A stretch of 20,009 nt of DNA from a virus. Its lineage: Duplodnaviria; Heunggongvirae; Uroviricota; Caudoviricetes. The notes under the pieces were generated by a model that worked only from the letters and a program-made list of their open reading frames with translations, made no database searches and had not been told where the DNA came from. Position numbers and translations under genes: made by a program. The stretch lies in IMG/VR virus record IMGVR_UViG_2617270955_000003, one strand, 5' to 3'. This document shows positions 8,963 to 19,569 of this stretch, in pieces (positions within the stretch are counted from its first letter, which is position 1; each line of letters begins with the position of its first letter).

Positions 8963-9507
8963 AAACGGGAGCCGAAGCTATCCGGGCGCTGGCCACGCAG
9001 CTCCCGGCGTTTCGTCAGAAACTGAATGAGGGCTGGTATCAGGTGCGCATTGCCGGGCGTGATGCAGGCGAAAACGAATTATCTGCCCGTCTTAATGAGC
9101 CGCTGGCAAATGGTGCCGTGATCCACATCGTGCCGCGTCTGGCGGGAGCTAAAAGTGGCGGTGTGTTTCAGGTGGTGCTGGGGGCGGCGCTGATTGCGGT
9201 GGCATGGTGGAACCCTGTGGGCTGGCTGGGTGCCGCGGCTGTATCGGGCATGTATGCGGCAGGGGCCAGTATGATCCTGGGTGGTGTGGCCCAGATGCTG
9301 GCACCGAAAGCCCGGACGCCCACAGCGACCAGCACGGATAACGGTAAGCAGAACACCTATTTCTCATCACTGGATAACATGGTTGCCCAGGGCAATGTTC
9401 TGCCTGTTCTGTACGGTGAAATGCGCGTGGGGTCTCGTGTGGTTTCTCAGGAGATCAGCACGGCAGATGAAGGGGACGGTGGTCAGGTTGTGGTGATTGG
9501 CCGCTGA
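8860..9507 (+). CDS. I: Tail assembly protein I
   Basis: 215 aa; N-terminus MAATHTLPLASPGMARICLYGDLQRFG and C-terminus ...QNTYFSSLDNMVAQGNVLPVLYGEMRVGSRVVSQEISTADEGDGGQVVVIGR match lambda gpI as recalled. Confidence 0.9.
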   Translation: MAATHTLPLASPGMARICLYGDLQRFGHRIDLRVKTGAEAIRALATQLPAFRQKLNEGWYQVRIAGRDAGENELSARLNEPLANGAVIHIVPRLAGAKSGGVFQVVLGAALIAVAWWNPVGWLGAAAVSGMYAAGASMILGGVAQMLAPKARTPTATSTDNGKQNTYFSSLDNMVAQGNVLPVLYGEMRVGSRVVSQEISTADEGDGGQVVVIGR

Positions 9508-9525
9508 TGCAAAATATTTCATGTG

Positions 9526-9550
9526 AAACCGCCTCCGGGCGGTTTTGTCG
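9526..9550 (+). terminator. Stem-loop plus T-rich tract between I and J
   Basis: AAACCGCC-TCCG-GGCGGTTT followed by TGTCGTTT. Confidence 0.45.
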
Positions 9551-9567
9551 TTTATGGAGCATGACGA

Positions 9568-12500
9568 ATGGGCAAAGGAAGCAGTAAGGGGCATACCCCG
9601 CGCGAAGCGAAGGACAACCTGAAATCCACGCAATTACTGAGTGTGATCGATGCCATCAGCGAAGGGCCGATTGAAGGTCCGGTGGATGGATTAAAAAGCG
9701 TGCTGCTGAACAGTACACCGGTGCTGGACAGTGAGGGGAATACCAACATCTCCGGTGTTACGGTGGTGTTCCGGGCAGGTGAGCAGGAGCAGACACCGCC
9801 GGAGGGATTTGAATCCTCCGGTTCCGAGACGGTGCTGGGTACGGAAGTGAAATACGACACGCCGATCACCCGCACCATCACGTCGGCAAACATCGACCGT
9901 CTGCGCTTTACCTTCGGTGTGCAGGCACTGGTGGAAACCACCTCAAAGGGGGACAGGAATCCATCGGAAGTCCGCCTGCTGGTTCAGATACAACGTAACG
10001 GTGGCTGGGTGACGGAAAAAGACATCACCATTAAGGGTAAAACCACCTCACAGTATCTGGCCTCAGTGGTGGTGGATAACCTGCCGCCGCGCCCGTTTAA
10101 TATCCGGATGCGCAGGATGACGCCGGACAGCACCACAGACCAGCTGCAGAACAAAACGCTCTGGTCGTCATACACCGAAATCATCGATGTGAAACAGTGC
10201 TACCCGAACACGGCACTGGTCGGCGTACAGGTGGACTCGGAGCAGTTCGGCAGCCAGCAGGTGAGTCGTAATTATCATCTTCGCGGGCGCATTCTGCAGG
10301 TGCCGTCGAACTATAACCCGCAGACGCGGCAATACAGCGGTATCTGGGACGGAACGTTTAAGCCGGCATACAGCAACAACATGGCCTGGTGTCTGTGGGA
10401 TATGCTGACCCATCCGCGCTACGGCATGGGAAAACGTCTTGGTGCGGCAGATGTGGATAAATGGGCGCTGTATGTCATCGGCCAGTACTGCGACCAGTCG
10501 GTGCCGGACGGCTTTGGCGGCACGGAGCCGCGCATCACCTGTAATGCGTACCTGACCACACAGCGTAAGGCGTGGGATGTGCTCAGTGATTTCTGCTCGG
10601 CGATGCGCTGTATGCCGGTATGGAACGGGCAGACGCTGACGTTCGTGCAGGACCGGCCGTCGGATAATGTGTGGACCTATAACCGCAGTAATGTGGTGAT
10701 GCCGGATGATGGCGCGCCGTTCCGCTACAGTTTCAGCGCCCTGAAGGACCGCCATAATGCCGTTGAGGTGAACTGGACTGACCCGGATAACGGCTGGGAA
10801 ACGGCAACAGAGCTTGTGGAGGACACGCAGGCCATTGCCCGTTATGGTCGTAATGTCACGAAGATGGATGCCTTTGGCTGTACCAGCCGGGGGCAGGCAC
10901 ACCGCGCCGGGCTGTGGCTGATTAAAACGGAGCTGCTGGAAACGCAGACCGTGGACTTCAGCGTGGGCGCAGAAGGGCTTCGCCATGTACCGGGCGATGT
11001 TATTGAAATCTGCGATGATGACTATGCCGGTATCAGCACCGGTGGTCGTGTGCTGGCGGTGAGCAGCCAGACCCGGACGCTGACGCTCGACCGTGAAATC
11101 ACGCTGCCATCCTCCGGCACCACGCTGATAAGCCTGGTTGACGGAAGTGGCAATCCGGTCAGCGTGCAGGTCCAGTCCGTCACCGACGGCGTGAAGGTGA
11201 AAGTGAGCCGGGTTCCTGACGGCGTTGCAGAATACAGCGTGTGGGGGCTGAAGTTGCCGACGTTGCGCCAGCGCCTGTTCCGCTGTGTGAGTATCCGTGA
11301 GAACGACGACGGCACGTATGCCATCACCGCCGTGCAGCATGTACCGGAAAAAGAAGCCATCGTGGATAACGGGGCGCACTTTGACGGCGACCAGAGCGGC
11401 ACGGTGAATGGTGTCACGCCGCCAGCGGTGCAGCACCTGGCCGCAGAAGTCACTGCAGACAGCGGGGAATATCAGGTGCTGGCGCGATGGGACACACCGA
11501 AGGTGGTGAAGGGCGTGAGCTTCCTGCTCCGTCTGACCGTAACAGCGGACGACGGCAGTGAGCGGCTGGTCAGCACGGCCCGGACGACGGAAACCACATA
11601 CCGCTTCAGGCAACTGGCGCTGGGGCGTTACACGCTGACGGTCCGGGCGGTAAATGCGTGGGGGCAGCAGGGCGATCCGGCATCGGTATCGTTCCGGATT
11701 GCGGCACCGGCAGCGCCTGTCACTATTGAACTGATACCAGGGTATTTTCAGATAACAGCGGTCCCGAAACTGGCTGTATATGACCCGACGGTGCAGTTTG
11801 AGTTCTGGTTCTCGGAAAAGCGGATTATCGATATCAGGCAGGTTGAAACCAGCGCGCGTTATCTTGGTACGGCGCTGTACTGGATAGCCGCCAGTAGCAA
11901 TATTAAGCCGGGTTATGATTATTACTTTTATATCCGCAGCGTGAACACCGTTGGTAAATCGGCATTTGTGGAGGCCGTTGGTCGGGCGAGCGATGATGCG
12001 GAAGGTTATCTGAATTTTTATAAAGGGTTGATCAATAAAACGCATCTCGGCAAGGAACTGCTGGAAAACTTTGAGCTGACGGAAGATAACGCCAGCAAAC
12101 TGGAGGAGTTTTCGAAAGAGTGGAAGGACGCCAACGATAAATGGAATGCCATGTGGGGCGTCAAAATTGAGCAGACCAAAGACGGCAAACATTATGTCGC
12201 GGGGCTTGGCCTCAGCATGGAGGATACGGAGGAAGGCAAACTGAGCCAGTTCCTGGTTGCCGCTAACCGTATCGCGTTTATTGACCCGGCAAACGGGAAT
12301 GAAACGCCGATGTTTGTGGCGCAGGGCAACCAGATATTCATGAACGACGTGTTCCTGAAGCGCCTGACGGCCCCCACCATTACCAGCGGCGGTAATCCTC
12401 CGGCATTTTCCCTGACACCGGACGGGCGGCTGACGGCGAAAAATGCCGATATCAGCGGTAACGTGAATGCGAACTCCGGGACGCTCAACAACGTCACGAT

Positions 12501-12963
12501 TAACGAGAACTGCCGGGTTCTGGGAAAACTGTCCGCGAACCAGATTGAAGGCGATCTCGTTAAAACAGTGGGCAAAGCTTTCCCCCGTGACTCCCGGGCA
12601 CCGGAGCGGTGGCCATCAGGGACCATTACCGTCAGGGTTTATGACGATCAGCCGTTTGACCGGCAAATTGTTATTCCGGCTGTGGCATTCAGTGGCGCTA
12701 AGCATGAGAGAGAGCATACTGATATTTACTCCTCATGCCGTCTGATAGTGCGGAAAAACGGTGCTGAAATTTATAACCGTACCGCGCTGGATAATACGCT
12801 GATTTACAGTGGCGTTATTGATATGCCTGCCGGTCACGGTCACATGACGCTGGAGTTTTCGGTGTCAGCATGGCTGGTAAATGGCTGGTATCCCACAGCA
12901 AGTATCAGCGATTTGCTGGTTGTTGTGATGAAGAAAGCCACTGCAGGCATCACGATTAGCTGA
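9568..12963 (+). CDS. J: Central tail fibre / host specificity protein J, with divergent C-terminal receptor-binding region
   Basis: 1131 aa; GGAG RBS 8 nt upstream; N-terminal ~1000 aa match lambda gpJ as recalled, with fibronectin-III-like repeats; last ~145 aa are homologous to but clearly different from lambda. Confidence 0.95.
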
Positions 12964-12982
12964 ATTTTATAACCCAGATACG

Positions 12983-13007
12983 GGCACCAGAAATGGTGCC
13001 TTTTTTA
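12983..13007 (+). terminator. Intrinsic terminator after J
   Basis: GGCACC-AGAAAT-GGTGCC hairpin followed by TTTTTTATT. Confidence 0.6.
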
Positions 13008-13030
13008 TTGCAGAAAAGCGAGAGGTAATT

Positions 13031-13630
13031 ATGCGTAAATTATGTGCTGTTATTCTATCCGCAGTAGTCTGGCTGGTTGCCGCTGGTACGCCAGCGAGCG
13101 CAGCAGAGCATCAGTCCACACTAAGCGCCGGGTATCTTCAGACCCATACTGATATGCCAGGCAGTGATGACCTGAAGGGCATTAACGTGAAATACCGTTA
13201 TGAATTTACGGACACGCTGGGGCTGGTGACGTCATTCAGTTATGCCAATGCCAAAGATGAGCAAAAAACGCATTACAGCGATACCCGCTGGCATGAAGAT
13301 TCAGTGCGTAACCGCTGGTTCAGCATGATGGCGGGGCCATCTGTACGCGTGAATGAATGGTTCAGTGCTTATGCGATGGCAGGTGTGGCTTACAGCCGTG
13401 TTTCGACGTTCTCCGGGGATTATCTCCGCGTAACTGACAACAAGGGGAAAACGCACGATGTGCTGACCGGAAGTGATGACGATCGCCACAGCAACACGTC
13501 TCTGGCGTGGGGAGCTGGCGTGCAGTTTAACCCGACCGAATCCGTGGCCATTGATATTGCTTATGAAGGCTCCGGCAGTGGCGACTGGCGCACTGACGGT
13601 TTCATCGTGGGTGTCGGTTATAAGTTCTGA
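13031..13630 (+). CDS. lom: Lom outer membrane protein (Ail/OmpX/PagC family)
   Basis: 199 aa; signal peptide MRKLCAVILSAVVWLVAAGTPASA; beta-barrel OMP signature with C-terminal ...GFIVGVGYKF; GAGAGG RBS; same position as lambda lom. Confidence 0.95.
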   Translation: MRKLCAVILSAVVWLVAAGTPASAAEHQSTLSAGYLQTHTDMPGSDDLKGINVKYRYEFTDTLGLVTSFSYANAKDEQKTHYSDTRWHEDSVRNRWFSMMAGPSVRVNEWFSAYAMAGVAYSRVSTFSGDYLRVTDNKGKTHDVLTGSDDDRHSNTSLAWGAGVQFNPTESVAIDIAYEGSGSGDWRTDGFIVGVGYKF

Positions 13631-13657
13631 TTAGCCAGGTAACACAGTGTTATGACA

Positions 13658-13683
13658 GCCCGCCGGTTCAGGCGGGCTTTTTT
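13658..13683 (+). terminator. Intrinsic terminator after lom
   Basis: GCCCGCC-GGTTCA-GGCGGGC hairpin followed by TTTTTT; a corresponding hairpin follows lom in lambda as I recall it. Confidence 0.65.
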
Positions 13684-13686
13684 GTG

Positions 13687-14397
13687 CACAGAAAACCCCC
13701 AGCTAGGCTGGGGGTTCCGGAAAGCTTTCAGCTTTAAGCCAGTTATTAAAACCCCTTTTGATTTGTTAAAACACCTTGCGGTCTGGCAACTGCAAGTGTC
13801 AAACAAGAAATCAAAAGGGGGTCCCAATGGGGAACGAAAAGAGCTTAGCGCACACCCGATGGAACTGTAAATATCACATAGTTTTTGCGCCAAAATACCG
13901 AAGACAGGTGTTCTACAGAGAGAAGCGTAGAGCAATAGGCAGTATTTTGAGAAAGCTGTGTGAGTGGAAAAGTGTACGGATTCTGGAAGCTGAATGCTGT
14001 GCAGATCATATCCATATGCTTGTGGAGATCCCGCCCAAAATGAGCGTATCCGGCTTTATGGGATATCTGAAAGGGAAAAGCAGTCTGATGCTTTACGAGC
14101 AGTTTGGTGATTTGAAATTCAAATACAGGAACAGGGAGTTCTGGTGCAGAGGGTACTACGTCGATACGGTGGGTAAGAACACGGCGAAGATACAGGATTA
14201 CATAAAGCACCAGCTTGAAGAGGATAAAATGGGAGAGCAGTTATCGATTCCCTATCCGGGCAGCCCGTTTACGGGCCGTAAGTAACGAAGTTGGATGCAA
14301 ATGTCAGATCGTGTGCGCCTGTTAGGGCGCGGCTGGTAAGAGAGCCTTATAGGCGCATTTGAAAAACCTCCGGCTATGCCGGAGGATATTTATTGTG
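13687..14397 (+). mobile_element. IS200-family insertion sequence (IS200/IS605 family), about 0.7 kb, boundaries approximate
   Basis: Contains an IS200-type TnpA gene; left end carries an 8-bp-stem hairpin (CCCCCAGC-TAG-GCTGGGGG, 13696..13714); element sits where lambda has only about 10 bp between the lom terminator and the stf start; length fits IS200 (about 707 bp). Confidence 0.7.
13827..14285 (+). CDS. tnpA: IS200-family transposase TnpA (HUH single-strand transposase)
   Basis: 152 aa from ATG 13827 (MGNEKSLAHTRWNCKYHIVFAPKYRR...); HUH motif in ...CADHIHMLVEIPP...; the track start at 13776 is an upstream in-frame extension. Confidence 0.9.
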   Translation: MGNEKSLAHTRWNCKYHIVFAPKYRRQVFYREKRRAIGSILRKLCEWKSVRILEAECCADHIHMLVEIPPKMSVSGFMGYLKGKSSLMLYEQFGDLKFKYRNREFWCRGYYVDTVGKNTAKIQDYIKHQLEEDKMGEQLSIPYPGSPFTGRK

Positions 14398-14405
14398 GAG
14401 TGGAT

Positions 14406-16784
14406 ATGGCAGCAGTAAAAATCTCAGGTGTGCTGAAAGATGGTGCGGGAAAACCAATACAGAACTGCACTATTCAACTGAAGGCAAAGCGTAACAGCAC
14501 CACGGTACTGGTGAACACGGTGGCTTCTGAAAATCCGGATGAAGCCGGACGTTACAGCATGGATGTTGAGCATGGTCAGTACAGCGTCACCCTGCTGGTT
14601 GAAGGTTTTCCGCCTTCACATGCCGGGACCATTACCGTCTATGAAGGTTCCAGACCAGGTACGCTGAATGATTTTCTCGGTGCCATGACGGAGGATGATG
14701 TCCGACCGGAGGCACTGCGCCGCTTTGAGCAGATGGTGGAAGAAGCGGCACGCAACGCTGAAGCCGCCTCTCAGAGCGCAGCGGCGGCAAAGAAATCCGA
14801 AACTGCAGCGGCATCATCGAAGAACGCGGCGAAAACCTCAGAAACGAATGCAGCTAACAGCGCACAGGCGGCAGCGACCTCAAAGACTGCATCGGCAAAC
14901 TCCGCGACAGCAGCCAAAAAATCAGAAACCAACGCGAAAAATAGCGAGACAGCCGCAAAGACGAGCGAAACCAACGCAAAGTCCAGCCAGACGGCAGCGA
15001 AAACCAGCGAAACGAATGCCAAAGCCAGTGAAACTGCGGCAAAAAACAGCCAGGTTGCAGCAGCCCAAAGCGAGAGCGCGGCAGCCGGTTCTGCGACTTC
15101 AGCAGCTGGATCAGCAACTGCTGCGGCTAACAGCCGGAAAGCTGCGAAGACGAGTGAAACTAACGCAAAGTCCAGCCAGACGGCAGCGAAGACCAGCGAA
15201 ACGAATGCCAAAGCCAGCGAAACTGCGGCGAAAAACAGTCAGGATGCAGCAGCCCAAAGCGAGAGTGCTGCAGCTGGTTCTGCAAGCGCGGCGGCTGCTT
15301 CTGCCACTGCATCAGCCAACAGTCAAAAAGCAGCAAAAACCAGTGAAACCAATGCAAAGACAAGCGAGACTGCAGCGGCGAACTCGGCGAAAGCATCCGC
15401 TGCAAGCCAGACCGCTGCAAAAGCAAGTGAAGACGCAGCCAGAGAGTATGCAAGCCAGGCAGCAGATCCGTATAAATATGTCTTACAGCCGCTGCCTGAT
15501 GTGTGGATACCGTTTAACGATTCACTGGATATGATTACGGGCTTTTCGCCATCATATAAAAAGATTGTTATTGGTGACGACGAAATAACGATGCCTGGCG
15601 ACAAGATTGTTAAGTTTAAACGTGCATCGAAAGCAACCTATATTAACAAATCTGGTGTGCTGACAGAGGCTGCCATTGATGAGCCACGATTTGAACGTGA
15701 TGGCCTGCTTATTGAGGGGCAAAGAACTAATCTTCTGCTTAATTCAACAAATCCATCTAAATGGAATAAGTCAGGCAATCTGGAACTCACAGAAATATCC
15801 ACGGATTCTTTTAATTTTACTTATGGGAGATTTACTGTAAAAGATACTCTTATTGGTCAGACAAGTGCTATTAATATCGTAACGATTTCTGGCAGTAAAG
15901 GGTTTGATGTCACAGGTGATGAAAAATATGTGACCATTTCATGCCGTGTAAGAAGTGATGTTGAAAATATAAGGTGTCGTTTAAGATTTGAACACCATGA
16001 TGGTTATACTTACACTTTTTTGGGAGATGCTTACCTCAATTTATCAACACTTGTAATTGATAAAACTGGTACTGCTGCAGACCGTATTATTGCAAAGGCT
16101 GTAAAAGATGAGGTTACTGGTTGGATTTTCTATCAGGCTACAATTAATGCACTAGATACAGAGAGCATGATTGGTGCGATGGTTCAATACGCTCCTGTAA
16201 AAGGTTCAGGTACAGCATCTGGAGACTATCTGGATATCGCAACTCCACAAGTGGAAGGTGGATCAAGTGCTTCGTCATTTATTGTAACTGATATAACTGC
16301 AAGCACTCGCGCAAGCGATATGGTGACAGTCCCAATCAAGAATAACCTTTATAATCTTCCTTTTACGGTTCTTTGTGAGGTACATAAGAACTGGTATAAA
16401 ACGCCAAATGCAGCACCGCGTGTTTTTGATACCGGCGGTCATCAAACCGGAGCGGCTATTATTCTTGGCTTCGGTCGTTCAACAGATTACGACGGATTTC
16501 CTTATTGTGATATAGGTTTGGCTAACAGACGGGTAAACGAAAACGCATCGCTTGAAAAAATGGTTATGGGGATGCGTGTAAAGTCAGATCAGTCTACGTG
16601 CTCAGTAAGTAACGGGCGTATATCCAGCGAAAAGAAAGCCACATGGTCCTATATTCAGAACTCCGCAATTATCCGTATTGGAGGCCAGACTACAGCCGGG
16701 TTGCGTCATTTATTTGGTCATGTCAGGAATTTCAGAATATGGCACAAGGCATTGACTGATGCTCAGATGGGGGAGTCAATCTAA
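14406..16784 (+). CDS. stf: Side tail fibre protein (lambda Stf-like N-terminus, repetitive Ala/Ser/Thr shaft, divergent AT-rich C-terminal domain)
   Basis: ATG 14406 gives MAAVKISGVLKDGAGKPIQNCTIQLKAKRNSTT..., matching the lambda Stf N-terminus as recalled; the track start at 14376 falls in the IS200 end region. Confidence 0.9.
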   Translation: MAAVKISGVLKDGAGKPIQNCTIQLKAKRNSTTVLVNTVASENPDEAGRYSMDVEHGQYSVTLLVEGFPPSHAGTITVYEGSRPGTLNDFLGAMTEDDVRPEALRRFEQMVEEAARNAEAASQSAAAAKKSETAAASSKNAAKTSETNAANSAQAAATSKTASANSATAAKKSETNAKNSETAAKTSETNAKSSQTAAKTSETNAKASETAAKNSQVAAAQSESAAAGSATSAAGSATAAANSRKAAKTSETNAKSSQTAAKTSETNAKASETAAKNSQDAAAQSESAAAGSASAAAASATASANSQKAAKTSETNAKTSETAAANSAKASAASQTAAKASEDAAREYASQAADPYKYVLQPLPDVWIPFNDSLDMITGFSPSYKKIVIGDDEITMPGDKIVKFKRASKATYINKSGVLTEAAIDEPRFERDGLLIEGQRTNLLLNSTNPSKWNKSGNLELTEISTDSFNFTYGRFTVKDTLIGQTSAINIVTISGSKGFDVTGDEKYVTISCRVRSDVENIRCRLRFEHHDGYTYTFLGDAYLNLSTLVIDKTGTAADRIIAKAVKDEVTGWIFYQATINALDTESMIGAMVQYAPVKGSGTASGDYLDIATPQVEGGSSASSFIVTDITASTRASDMVTVPIKNNLYNLPFTVLCEVHKNWYKTPNAAPRVFDTGGHQTGAAIILGFGRSTDYDGFPYCDIGLANRRVNENASLEKMVMGMRVKSDQSTCSVSNGRISSEKKATWSYIQNSAIIRIGGQTTAGLRHLFGHVRNFRIWHKALTDAQMGESI
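14953..15283 (+). repeat. Tandem in-frame duplication of about 189 bp (63 codons) in the stf shaft
   Basis: Segments 14953..15094 and 15142..15283 are near-identical at offset 189 bp (...GTCCAGCCAGACGGCAGCGAA.ACCAGCGAAACGAATGCCAAAGCCAG.GAAACTGCGGC...), encoding repeated AAKTSETNAKSSQTAAKTSETNAKASETAAKNSQ. Confidence 0.85.
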
Positions 16785-17065
16785 TGAAAGATTTAACACT
16801 CAAATTTGCAGACAGGGCCGACTTTTCGGCCTTTATGGATAGCATTGGCTATTATGATGACGAGTCGATGCAGGATGATATTCTTATTGACGTGATAGGT
16901 AACGTGTACAAAGAAACCGGAGAACTGACTGAAGATGGCGAACCGGTATGTGTTAAGGAAGATGGATATTATGTAAACGTGCGCATCATTAATGATGCAA
17001 AAAAATCGTCAATATTCGATGAATACGCGGTTGTAGTTGAACATCAACTTCGTGGCTGGATGTGA
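16784..17065 (+). CDS. Hypothetical small acidic protein (93 aa), translationally coupled to stf
   Basis: ATG overlaps the stf stop (TAATG); AT-rich like the stf 3' half; occupies the position where lambda has tfa but does not resemble Tfa. Confidence 0.55.
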   Translation: MKDLTLKFADRADFSAFMDSIGYYDDESMQDDILIDVIGNVYKETGELTEDGEPVCVKEDGYYVNVRIINDAKKSSIFDEYAVVVEHQLRGWM

Positions 17066-17074
17066 GGGAGACAA

Positions 17075-17779
17075 ATGGCTACATCGACAGTAATTCCAGG
17101 AGACATCACCACGTTAAAGGGAGATGTCAGTAAAGCCAAGGAAGATATTTCCTCAATTAACGGAAAAGTATCAACGCTTCAGGCTGATATGACCAGTGCA
17201 AAGCAGGATATCAGCACCAGATACACAAAAACTGAAGTTGATAATAAGCTGAAAAACAAACTGGAAGTGAACGCTCTGGAAAGCGGTCGTTATGGTGGAG
17301 ATTTTTACCCGTTGACTGGCCGTGAAGCGTTTTATTTGTGGGGATTGGGCACGACTACAGCGGCGGCAAACCTTTATCTTAATCCTGACCCCGCAATTTC
17401 GTCTGTGCTGCGGTCAACATCGTCTATCCGCTATAAACATTCAGTAGAGACAATAGATTCAGAGCACGCCGATCTCATTTTCAGGATGCGCCCTGTGTGG
17501 TACAGGTCACAATGCGAAAATGACAGGCGTGACTGGGGATTCTACGGATTGATTGCCGAGGAAGTAGGAGAAATTGCCCCTCAGTTTGTACACTGGCGAC
17601 CAGCTAACGAAGATGATGCACCGGAAGCTATTTCCAGCAATGGCCTTGTTGCCGAAGGTGTAATGTACGAACGTCTGGTTGTTCCACTGATTCACCATAT
17701 CCAGAAGCTGACTGAAAGAGTTGATGAACTTGAGTCAGAATTAAAGTTGTTATCCGTTTCCCGAAGCGATATCGGATAA
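17075..17779 (+). CDS. Tail-fibre-like protein with C-terminal intramolecular-chaperone (peptidase S74-like) domain
   Basis: 234 aa; GGGAG RBS; N-terminal periodic coiled-coil-like segment; C-terminal ...SSIRYKHSVETIDSEHADLIFRMRPVWY...WGFYGLIAEEVGEIAPQFV...NGLVAEGVMYERLVVPLIHHIQKLTERVDELESELK resembles the autoproteolytic chaperone domains of phage fibres and tailspikes. Confidence 0.65.
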   Translation: MATSTVIPGDITTLKGDVSKAKEDISSINGKVSTLQADMTSAKQDISTRYTKTEVDNKLKNKLEVNALESGRYGGDFYPLTGREAFYLWGLGTTTAAANLYLNPDPAISSVLRSTSSIRYKHSVETIDSEHADLIFRMRPVWYRSQCENDRRDWGFYGLIAEEVGEIAPQFVHWRPANEDDAPEAISSNGLVAEGVMYERLVVPLIHHIQKLTERVDELESELKLLSVSRSDIG

Positions 17780-17789
17780 AGGAGGAGTA

Positions 17790-18077
17790 ATGGATATAAG
17801 CCCCTTACTTCATGCACTTTGTGCTGTGGCTGCGCAAACACTGGTTGGTCTTTTTACCGGAAACTGGGCTTACGGAGCGATAGCCGGTTGTACGTTCTTC
17901 ATTGCGCGTGAACACACCCAGGCAGAATATCGCTGGATCGAAATGTTCGGGCATGGCAAGCGAATGAATATGCCGTGGTGGGGCGGTTTTGATCCGCGCG
18001 CGTGGGATGTGACAAGCCTGATGGATTTTGCTGTGCCGGTGGTGGCGTGTCTGCTGATCTGGATGTTGATCCGTTAA
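17790..18077 (+). CDS. Hypothetical small membrane protein (95 aa, 2-3 predicted TM segments)
   Basis: Strong RBS AAGGAGGAG 7 nt upstream; hydrophobic N-terminal and C-terminal segments; last gene before attP. Confidence 0.6.
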   Translation: MDISPLLHALCAVAAQTLVGLFTGNWAYGAIAGCTFFIAREHTQAEYRWIEMFGHGKRMNMPWWGGFDPRAWDVTSLMDFAVPVVACLLIWMLIR

Positions 18078-18084
18078 ATATAAA

Positions 18085-18120
18085 AGCCGCAGTAACTTGC
18101 CATGATAGGATACTGCGGCT
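18085..18120 (+). repeat. Inverted repeat / hairpin downstream of the membrane-protein ORF
   Basis: AGCCGCAGTA ... TACTGCGGCT (10-bp arms, 16-nt loop); no following T-tract, so terminator function is uncertain. Confidence 0.3.
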
Positions 18121-18317
18121 GGCTGGTTAACTTTCGATAGTGCGAGTATTGAATGATTTCCAGCCGTTACTGATTTTATATAACGGCAGTGGAATTATTC
18201 AACACACAGGCAAAACACAGGCAAAACGGAATAAGCTGAGAAAAAAAGCGTGCTTTCCCAATCTGGGGCAAATCACGTCTGAATGACACCTGAAAACAGG
18301 TGGTGGACTCAAGAAGG

Positions 18318-18395
18318 CTTGGAATATTCTTCTTTAATGTTATGTAATTCATTGATTTTTCGTGTACGATTTTAAGACATTTATTCCAAGAAGAA
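18318..18395 (+). promoter_or_regulatory. Candidate integrase arm-type binding sites (P arm): one direct and one inverted CTTGGAATA motif
   Basis: CTTGGAATATTCTTC at 18318..18332 and its inverted relative TTATTCCAAGAAGAA at 18381..18395, upstream of the tRNA-like core. Confidence 0.5.
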
Positions 18396-18429
18396 TTTTT
18401 AACTCTTTGATTTTTCTACTCTGTATCAT

Positions 18430-18491
18430 CGGTCTCGAAAACCGGAGTGGGGGCAACTCCACCGGGGGTTCAAATCCCCCTCTCTCCGCCA
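18430..18491 (+). tRNA. Partial tRNA-Ser(CGA) (serU-like) 3' segment, anticodon stem to CCA; probable att core
   Basis: Anticodon loop CTCGAAA (anticodon CGA), long variable arm, T-arm GGGGG-TTCAAAT-CCCCC, acceptor 3' strand TCTCTCC, discriminator G and CCA at 18489..18491; no matching 5' acceptor/D-arm upstream, so not a complete gene. Confidence 0.75.
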
Positions 18492-18536
18492 AAATTCAAT
18501 CACTTACACATCATTAAGTCAGTGACAAAAATCACA

Positions 18537-18572
18537 CTTGGAATTACTTGGAATATTTTCTTGGAATATTTT
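18537..18572 (+). promoter_or_regulatory. Candidate integrase arm-type binding sites (P' arm): three direct CTTGGAAT(T/A) repeats
   Basis: CTTGGAATTA (18537..18546), CTTGGAATATTTT (18547..18559), CTTGGAATATTTT (18560..18572); they overlap the last about 10 codons of int. Confidence 0.55.
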
Positions 18573-19569
18573 CAGGTAACGGGACATCAAGTGTTGGTGA
18601 AACTTTAACCTTCCTGTCATAGATTAGCACTTGCCCTTCGGTTTTGTGACCAGAGAAAAGTTGCTTATCCCGGCTGCTTCCTTCATAGTCTGAAATTCCT
18701 TTCGCCTTCAGATCATGAAAGGTGAAGTCGGTTAAAATACCTGAAATTTTTCCAGCACGATTTCTTGCATCTACCCACATTTCGTTAAAGCCTTTGTACA
18801 TATATCGGTTGCCGTATTGATTGCTGATCACATAGGCAGATTTTGGTAACTGTTTTGCTTTTTCGATCGCTGCCTGTAATCGTGGACTCCATGCTTTTAT
18901 CTGTTTTTTTCCGGTTTTCCCTTGCTGGATGAATATCCCGTCGTTTCCAATCTGTTCCCATTTCAGCGATAACACATCGGAAACCCTCGCTGCACACAGA
19001 TAGGCAATTTCCATTGCGATAAAAACAGGAAGAGGTGCAACGCTTAATACTGCCTGGTATTCTTTGTCGGTTACATATCGTTCGCGGTTTTTGGCCTTGA
19101 ATTTACTTACACCTGCACATGGGTTAGCCTTCACGTACCCTCGCTCATACCCCCAACTGTAAACACGGGACATACTGCTTTTTTCATGGTTGGCTTGCGT
19201 TTTACTCTGCTCCCCTCTTTTGTCCATGTATCGACGGATGTGTTCTGGTTTTATGGAATCCGCTGGTACCTTACCGAATACGGCAAGCAACTTTTTTTGA
19301 TGTTGCAGATAATCTTTTTGTGTTCTTGGACTAAGGTCACTGTAATAGGCGCTGGCGAGGAATTTTTCCCACAAGCGACCGAATGTCATTGCACGATCGC
19401 GATTATTTACAGTTTCCTCATACTTTTTCCATAAAGCAGCTAAACCATCCTTGATGGCGGTTAGTGTGACAGATTCTCTGGATGTTGGTTTCCATACATA
19501 ACTATATTTATTTGGGTATACATTTGGAGGTAATTTTTCGTGTTCAGGATTTTTCCTTCGTCTTCCCAT
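18544..19569 (-). CDS. int: Tyrosine integrase (lambda Int family)
   Basis: 341 aa; lambda-like arm-binding N-terminus MGRRRKNPEHEKLPPNVY; catalytic-region signatures ...HDLKAKG... and ...GHKTEGQVLIYDRK (candidate Tyr); adjacent to attP; start overlaps the xis-like stop (TGATG). Confidence 0.95.
   Translation of the reverse strand: MGRRRKNPEHEKLPPNVYPNKYSYVWKPTSRESVTLTAIKDGLAALWKKYEETVNNRDRAMTFGRLWEKFLASAYYSDLSPRTQKDYLQHQKKLLAVFGKVPADSIKPEHIRRYMDKRGEQSKTQANHEKSSMSRVYSWGYERGYVKANPCAGVSKFKAKNRERYVTDKEYQAVLSVAPLPVFIAMEIAYLCAARVSDVLSLKWEQIGNDGIFIQQGKTGKKQIKAWSPRLQAAIEKAKQLPKSAYVISNQYGNRYMYKGFNEMWVDARNRAGKISGILTDFTFHDLKAKGISDYEGSSRDKQLFSGHKTEGQVLIYDRKVKVSPTLDVPLPENIPRKYSK

Follow-up and report, generated by a model that had tools for sequence, protein, structure and literature searches.

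The window analysed in this study is a 20,009-nucleotide stretch of DNA with the tail module of a lambdoid E. coli prophage, taken from the IMG/VR virus record IMGVR_UViG_2617270955_000003 (Caudoviricetes), and it carries on its plus strand a gene encoding a lambda-type tip attachment, or central tail fibre, protein J (9568-12963), which the ORF list and translation present as an intact ORF of 1131 aa. The protein begins at the same N-terminus as lambda gpJ, is collinear with it and contains, in order, the six domains of the full gpJ architecture as defined by Pfam (FNIII-A_GpJ, Phage-tail_3, Ig_J, Ig_J_second, Phage_Tail_Tip and Ig_GpJ_C). At the DNA level the gene is 100% identical to the gpJ-annotated gene (WP_001554175.1) of strains JJ1886 and TUM1857. 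Two ORFs that overlap J, one at 12192-12626 on the minus strand and one at 12467-12745 on the plus strand, were found to be without support as genes.

Comparison with lambda was performed by global protein alignment employing gpJ of NC_001416 (15505-18903) as the reference. The larger part of the gene (9568-12399, plus strand), which encodes the hub domains, the FNIII domains, the helical shaft and most of the beta-prism fibre, is lambda-like, with approximately 96% identity at the DNA level and 96.0% aa identity over residues 1-963. Over residues 1-981, 939 of the 981 positions are identical (95.7%), which bears out an earlier, sequence-only reading of this DNA in which J was held to follow lambda gpJ closely for about 1000 residues. 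The resemblance ends in a mosaic transition zone (12400-12510, plus strand), across which the DNA identity to lambda in 60-nt bins decays from 98 to 85, 73 and finally 52%; the last long runs identical to lambda in the protein end at aa 953, 964 and 973, dense mismatches begin at approximately position 12488, and an identity of approximately 52% is then maintained through to the J stop codon. Downstream of this zone, residues 982-1131 (12511-12960, plus strand) share only 62 of 151 aligned positions with lambda gpJ aa 982-1132 (41.1%), the 89 observed mismatches comparing with approximately 6.5 expected at the upstream rate (binomial tail 2e-80), and on this identity the tip does not represent the LamB-binding allele of lambda. 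The sequence-only reading had also described the last ~145 aa, from position 12510 onwards, as unlike the lambda LamB-binding domain; this description stands, its start being correct to within a codon (codon 981 ends with position 12510 and codon 982 begins at 12511), and the identity of at least 90% to the lambda gpJ C-terminus that it had named as speaking against it is clearly absent.

The non-lambda block continues beyond the J stop codon, a point absent from the earlier reading, and takes in the intergenic terminator and most of the downstream gene lom, approximately 90% DNA identity to lambda being resumed only at 13540-13650. The terminator-like element between J and lom (12982-13011, plus strand), which was recognised by a consensus scan and is a pattern match only, consists of a hairpin with an 8-bp stem (GGGCACC..GGTGCCT) followed by the T-run TTTTTATT. 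Upstream of the tip boundary, a second and milder mosaic patch was observed within J at 11680-12100 (aa ~700-850, corresponding to the second Ig/FNIII domain and helical shaft region), where the DNA identity to lambda dips to 78-90%, returning to 97-100% past the patch and ahead of the boundary.

Residues 1001-1131 of J match the Pfam family PF12421 (Ig_GpJ_C, 'C-terminal receptor binding domain') with an E-value of 6e-37 and a score of 127 bits against a cutoff of 26.2, the match spanning the whole profile (positions 1-135 of 135). Searched against the PDB with phmmer, the tip had A8 gpJ713 (9wca/9wcb; E 5e-73) and lambda gpJ (8xcj and 8iyk; E 4e-52) as its best sequence hits. An AlphaFold2 model of J aa 945-1131, built from 19 relatives, presents the tip as an all-beta sandwich (mean pLDDT 75, with values of 80-95 in the domain), and the only strong Foldseek matches to this model are 9wca and 9wcb at the top of the ranking, followed by 8xck and 8xcj (E 3e-19 to 5e-17), while the match after these four gpJ structures stands at E 6e-5. 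Entry 9wcb is the 'Open state of A8 gpJ 713 central tail fiber with OmpC G17 from E. coli EDL933', 9wca is the closed state of A8, and the pair 8xcj/8xck comprises the lambda gpJ tip in its closed form and in its open form on LamB; a literature search found no paper describing 9wca/9wcb. The structure prediction, which the earlier reading had proposed as a check, thus reveals a fold in agreement with the gpJ tip structures solved for lambda and A8, and both the profile score and the Ig-like beta-sandwich fold place the segment within PF12421. The divergent tip is another allele of the receptor-binding domain of lambda and not another kind of domain. Divergence between the tip classes is greatest in four segments, at aa ~1006-1017, ~1043-1053, ~1072-1078 and ~1101-1110, all of which are loops in the model, and the second of these carries a 5-6 residue insertion in A8, 21 and 434; conserved among the tips are the FDRQIV, KNG and IDMPAG motifs and the C-terminal strand.

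On the basis of near-identity over the region corresponding to lambda aa 964 to the end, prophage J can be assigned to the allele class of 1A2 and PPompW, the latter being a natural J allele of O157:H7 prophages. The last 189 aa of J differ from the PPompW allele (O157 prophage; GenBank LC567822) by only two substitutions, R1048K and G1106N, and the 150-aa tip is identical to it at 148 of 150 positions (98.7%). The source for 1A2 was the recoded DNA printed in the supplement of PMC11338833, which was machine-read (OCR) and is noisy; plain tblastn against this text produced misleadingly low identities owing to OCR frameshifts, and a frameshift-tolerant protein-to-DNA alignment, together with PPompW, was used instead. 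In that alignment 198 of 215 residues are identical and R1048K and G1106N are the only clean substitutions, the remaining mismatches being reading-frame or stop artefacts of the OCR; the identity to 1A2 is based partly on PPompW as a proxy, because the 1A2 text is noisy and eight of its residues are unreadable. Both substitutions, K in place of R1048 (codon aga, 12709-12711, plus strand) and N in place of G1106 (codon ggc, 12883-12885, plus strand), fall in variable predicted loops: the former in HE-R/K-EH, where related alleles show substitutions and the 5-6 residue insertion, and the latter in WLVN-G/N/D-WY, which varies among alleles.

The junction between the tip and the lambda-like body of J is likewise the same as in 1A2/PPompW, and lambda aa 964, the graft point of the engineered 1A2 and A8 chimeras, maps into the 12400-12510 transition zone. 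With the remainder of J 96% lambda-like, the protein as a whole amounts to a natural counterpart of the engineered lambda-1A2 chimera, with the difference that 1A2 is recoded DNA expressed in a lambda packaging strain whereas prophage J is a natural gene.

Alignment to the J proteins of phages with known receptors, a further check that the sequence-only reading had proposed, was performed over aa 982-1131 and included lambda, 21 and 434. The tip is 100% identical to that of Escherichia phage 2G7b (LR595866/NC_049954, Nesevirus), 98-99% identical to those of PPompW, many Stx1a/Stx2a phages, VT1-Sakai and JLK-2012 (the group of the OmpC-using 1A2) and 91% identical to that of PhiR49_2, and it shares 63% identity with the tips of phage 21 and mEp460, 58-60% with the OmpC-using tips of A8 and phi330, 41% with the LamB-using tips of lambda, HK630 and DE3, and approximately 40% with those of 434 (h434), cdtI and mEp332, a group associated with OmpC (434 being reported as an OmpC user, as cited in PMC12502783). 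Phage 2G7b, whose tip is also 99.5% identical at the DNA level and whose tail-tip genes are lambda-like as in the prophage, is lambda-like in its entire head and tail; the prophage, by contrast, possesses head-tail genes of HK97 type together with a tape measure of 1077 aa. The tips of A8 (9wca, and 9wcb with EDL933 OmpC) and phi330 (PV189401) share the domain family, the fold and the C-terminal strand with the prophage tip; however, that of A8, which is OmpC-dependent and solved in complex with OmpC, is only ~58% identical, one of its loops being lengthened by an insertion of 5 residues (NFNSNNQQSYW) and another shortened by 4, and on this identity and the absence of the insertion the prophage tip does not belong to the A8/phi330 allele. 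Neither does it belong to the 434-type OmpC-binding allele: the 434 J tip (lambda h434; OmpC of K-12) is also that of a lambdoid OmpC-using phage and of the same domain family, but at 40% identity it forms a separate allele class. Literature searches found no receptor data for the phages with an identical or near-identical tip (2G7b, PhiR55_1/PhiR49_2 and vB_EcoS-783R2), and a 2026 receptor-prediction preprint covers Drexlerviridae gpJ and not lambdoid tips.

The prevalence of the two tip types was assessed by megablast of the prophage tip DNA (12488-12963) and the equivalent lambda stretch against 5426 complete E. coli genomes. Prophage tip DNA was detected at an identity of at least 80% in 3372 of these genomes (median copy number, two) and at an identity of at least 99% in 193 records, whereas lambda tip DNA was confined to a separate set of 98 genomes, all with at least 99% identity, the first eight records listed for it being K-12, B and DE3 laboratory strains. 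With 98 genomes against 3372, it is the lambda tip that is the outlier and the prophage tip that is the ordinary tip of E. coli prophages, and the divergence which the earlier reading had treated as noteworthy in fact marks a type that is common in E. coli prophages, lambda's own being rare. Because of this rarity, annotating the J proteins of E. coli prophages from their resemblance to lambda J would in most cases falsely suggest that they use LamB. That lambdoid phages exchange their J tips as modules is well established, and the locus described here contains nothing new in kind, since the allele class, the OmpC receptor and modular exchange have all been described and the exact protein is present in RefSeq under the accession number given above.

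Concerning the receptor, fusion of the 1A2 C-terminus onto lambda J at aa 964 has been found to render DNA delivery LamB-independent and OmpC-variant-dependent (Brödel et al., Nature 2024, PMC11338833). In the assay host employed, MG1655 without lamB and ompC and carrying an OmpC variant on a plasmid, delivery by 1A2 was approximately 98% with EDL933 OmpC and approximately 2% with MG1655 (K-12) OmpC, and it reached 96% with ST131 (TN03) OmpC at the high MOI of 125, while wild-type lambda achieved about 2-3% delivery in lamB/ompC-deleted cells even at high MOI (PMC11338833). The A8 tip delivers with both MG1655 and EDL933 OmpC (PMC11338833), and thus accepts the K-12 OmpC that 1A2 does not. Phage phi330, which has an A8-type tip, does not plate on a BW25113 ompC deletion strain and is rescued by complementation (PMC12502783). 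Since OmpC is used by two members of the wider clade (1A2 and A8/phi330) and also by the distant 434 class, its use is found in at least two distant tip classes. By analogy with 1A2, the tip encoded at 12511-12960 is predicted to be an OmpC binder, and its receptor is most likely OmpC rather than LamB, with recognition that would depend on the OmpC variant. The sequence-only reading, which had predicted a different outer-membrane receptor and had named none, is in this respect supported by experiments on the almost identical 1A2, beyond divergence alone.

It was also considered that the two substitutions relative to 1A2 may have shifted the specificity of the tip to an outer-membrane protein other than OmpC, such as OmpF, PhoE, NmpC-type porins or LamB. 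Such a shift would be favoured by the location of R1048 and G1106 in those predicted loops that vary most within the family, and lambda J itself gains the use of OmpF through a few tip mutations, as discussed in PMC11101478; it nevertheless appears improbable in view of the 98.7% identity to 1A2/PPompW over 150 aa, the use of OmpC by each of the two members of the wider clade that have been tested (1A2 and A8/phi330, themselves only 58% identical to each other) and the identity of only 41% to the LamB-binding tip of lambda.

With OmpC as the preferred receptor, the R1048/G1106 allele would be expected to behave like 1A2, although the range of OmpC variants that it accepts could differ, since both residues are located in the two loops most variable among related alleles. 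It is conceivable, if rather unlikely, that the ST131-type allele (R1048, G1106) has an OmpC-variant range different from that of the O157-type 1A2 and that the variable loops serve as a tuning dial by which a resident prophage J tip is matched to the OmpC of its own lineage. If this were true, the tip would have been optimised in nature for the OmpC of ST131, a variant that is only moderately well recognised by 1A2. The exact allele is carried by ST131 prophages and represents a ready-made candidate tip for delivery vectors directed against ST131 OmpC.

The stretch from approximately 12400, or from 12511, to 12960 is best explained as a horizontally exchanged receptor-binding module that belongs to the domain family of lambda but to a different allele class. 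The J trimer would end in three Ig-like beta-sandwich domains, the distal loops of which, in the case of this allele, would dock onto the trimeric porin OmpC. By analogy with the lambda-LamB and A8-OmpC complexes, binding would then spread the base of the tip trimer and twist the beta-prism fibre above it, whereupon the helical shaft would flip, the FNIII strings would dissociate and the tail tip would open for DNA ejection, this being the sequence of spreading, twisting, flipping, dissociation and opening described for lambda-LamB in PMC11101478. The residues that would carry these opening steps, 1-981, are those with 95.7% identity to lambda, and the tip shares its Ig-like fold, and presumably its opening mechanism, with lambda gpJ (8xcj/8xck, LamB) at a tip identity of 41%.

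The region 502-18506 of the window is 100% identical to the prophage adjoining zinT in ST131 strains (JJ1886, EC958 and others), and the identity to strain TUM1857, also 100%, covers 1-18506. At the left end, an IS1 element (1 to approximately 501; InsA ORF at 172-447, minus strand) abuts a major capsid gene (507-926) that is without its N-terminus, the same junction being present in TUM1857, while the corresponding upstream region of JJ1886 contains a complete HK97-type terminase-portal-protease-capsid head module. Since IS1 truncates the capsid gene, the prophage copy is defective and yields no virions on its own; its J can reach a virion only via recombination with, or complementation by, another lambdoid phage, and the protein may never act in this host. 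A gene for an IS200C-family transposase (Y1_Tnp; 13776-14285) has been inserted after lom and ahead of stf, the gene for the side tail fibre, and is also found in JJ1886 and TUM1857. These signs of damage, together with the observation that many database relatives of the prophage tip are frameshifted fragments, would suit an explanation by decay, in which the J tip of a cryptic prophage is drifting and has lost all binding, but such an explanation is very hard to sustain: J is an unbroken ORF, exactly this tip (100% identity) is carried by the plaque-isolated phage 2G7b and by the JJ1886/EC958 prophage with its full head-tail module, the domain retains its conserved core residues and scores highly against PF12421, and the lambda sequence has been replaced as one clean block and not damaged at scattered points. 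The identical tip of the isolated phage and the presence of DNA with at least 80% identity in 3372 of the 5426 genomes point to a tip that is functional in nature.

The gene lom (13031-13630, plus strand) encodes a 199-aa Ail/Lom outer-membrane beta-barrel protein (PF06316, E 2e-127), which is about 45-47% identical to lambda Lom, 86% identical to the products of phi330 and h434 lom, and 99% identical to that of 2G7b. Judged by these identities, lambda lom is the outlier allele, as is the lambda J tip. The last ~30 Lom residues are identical in all proteins compared and probably serve as a recombination joint. The notion that the J tip and lom constitute a functional, co-varying cassette in which the Lom variant is matched to the receptor type (e.g. 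for exclusion) is barely credible and was rejected, since the non-lambda block covering the J tip and most of lom requires no more than physical linkage, lambda's lom simply being the outlier, while the same 199-aa lom type (86% identity) follows both A8-type (phi330) and 434-type tips and phage 21 is without lom after J.

Within 2515-9507, resemblance to lambda was observed only in the tail-tip genes M-L-K-I-J, the major tail protein (234 aa, Ig-domain type), the chaperones and the 1077-aa tape measure (853 aa in the case of lambda gpH) being of non-lambda type. Since the tape measure, chaperones and major tail protein are of another type, the route of inner-membrane entry may differ from the ManYZ route of lambda; tape-measure clades have been linked to the inner-membrane entry route in PMC13190303. 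In the side tail fibre locus (14376-18077), an 802-aa Stf bearing the prophage tail-fibre N-terminal domain is accompanied by two ORFs of 93 and 95 aa and by a protein of 234 aa that contains an endosialidase-chaperone (Peptidase_S74) domain, an arrangement unlike the stf-tfa pair of lambda.

At the right end of the window, the match to the right end of the JJ1886/TUM1857 prophage stops at 18506, and from 18430 onwards the sequence matches the integrase end of this prophage as found in strain 4/0, the two matches overlapping in a core of approximately 77 bp. Positions 18430-18492 correspond to the 3' part of a tRNA-Ser gene, no complete tRNA being detected by ARAGORN, and the tail-fibre end directly adjoins a gene for an integrase (18544-19569, minus strand). 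The segment 18430-19569 is an attP-like or tandem-prophage junction and not the usual zinT junction.
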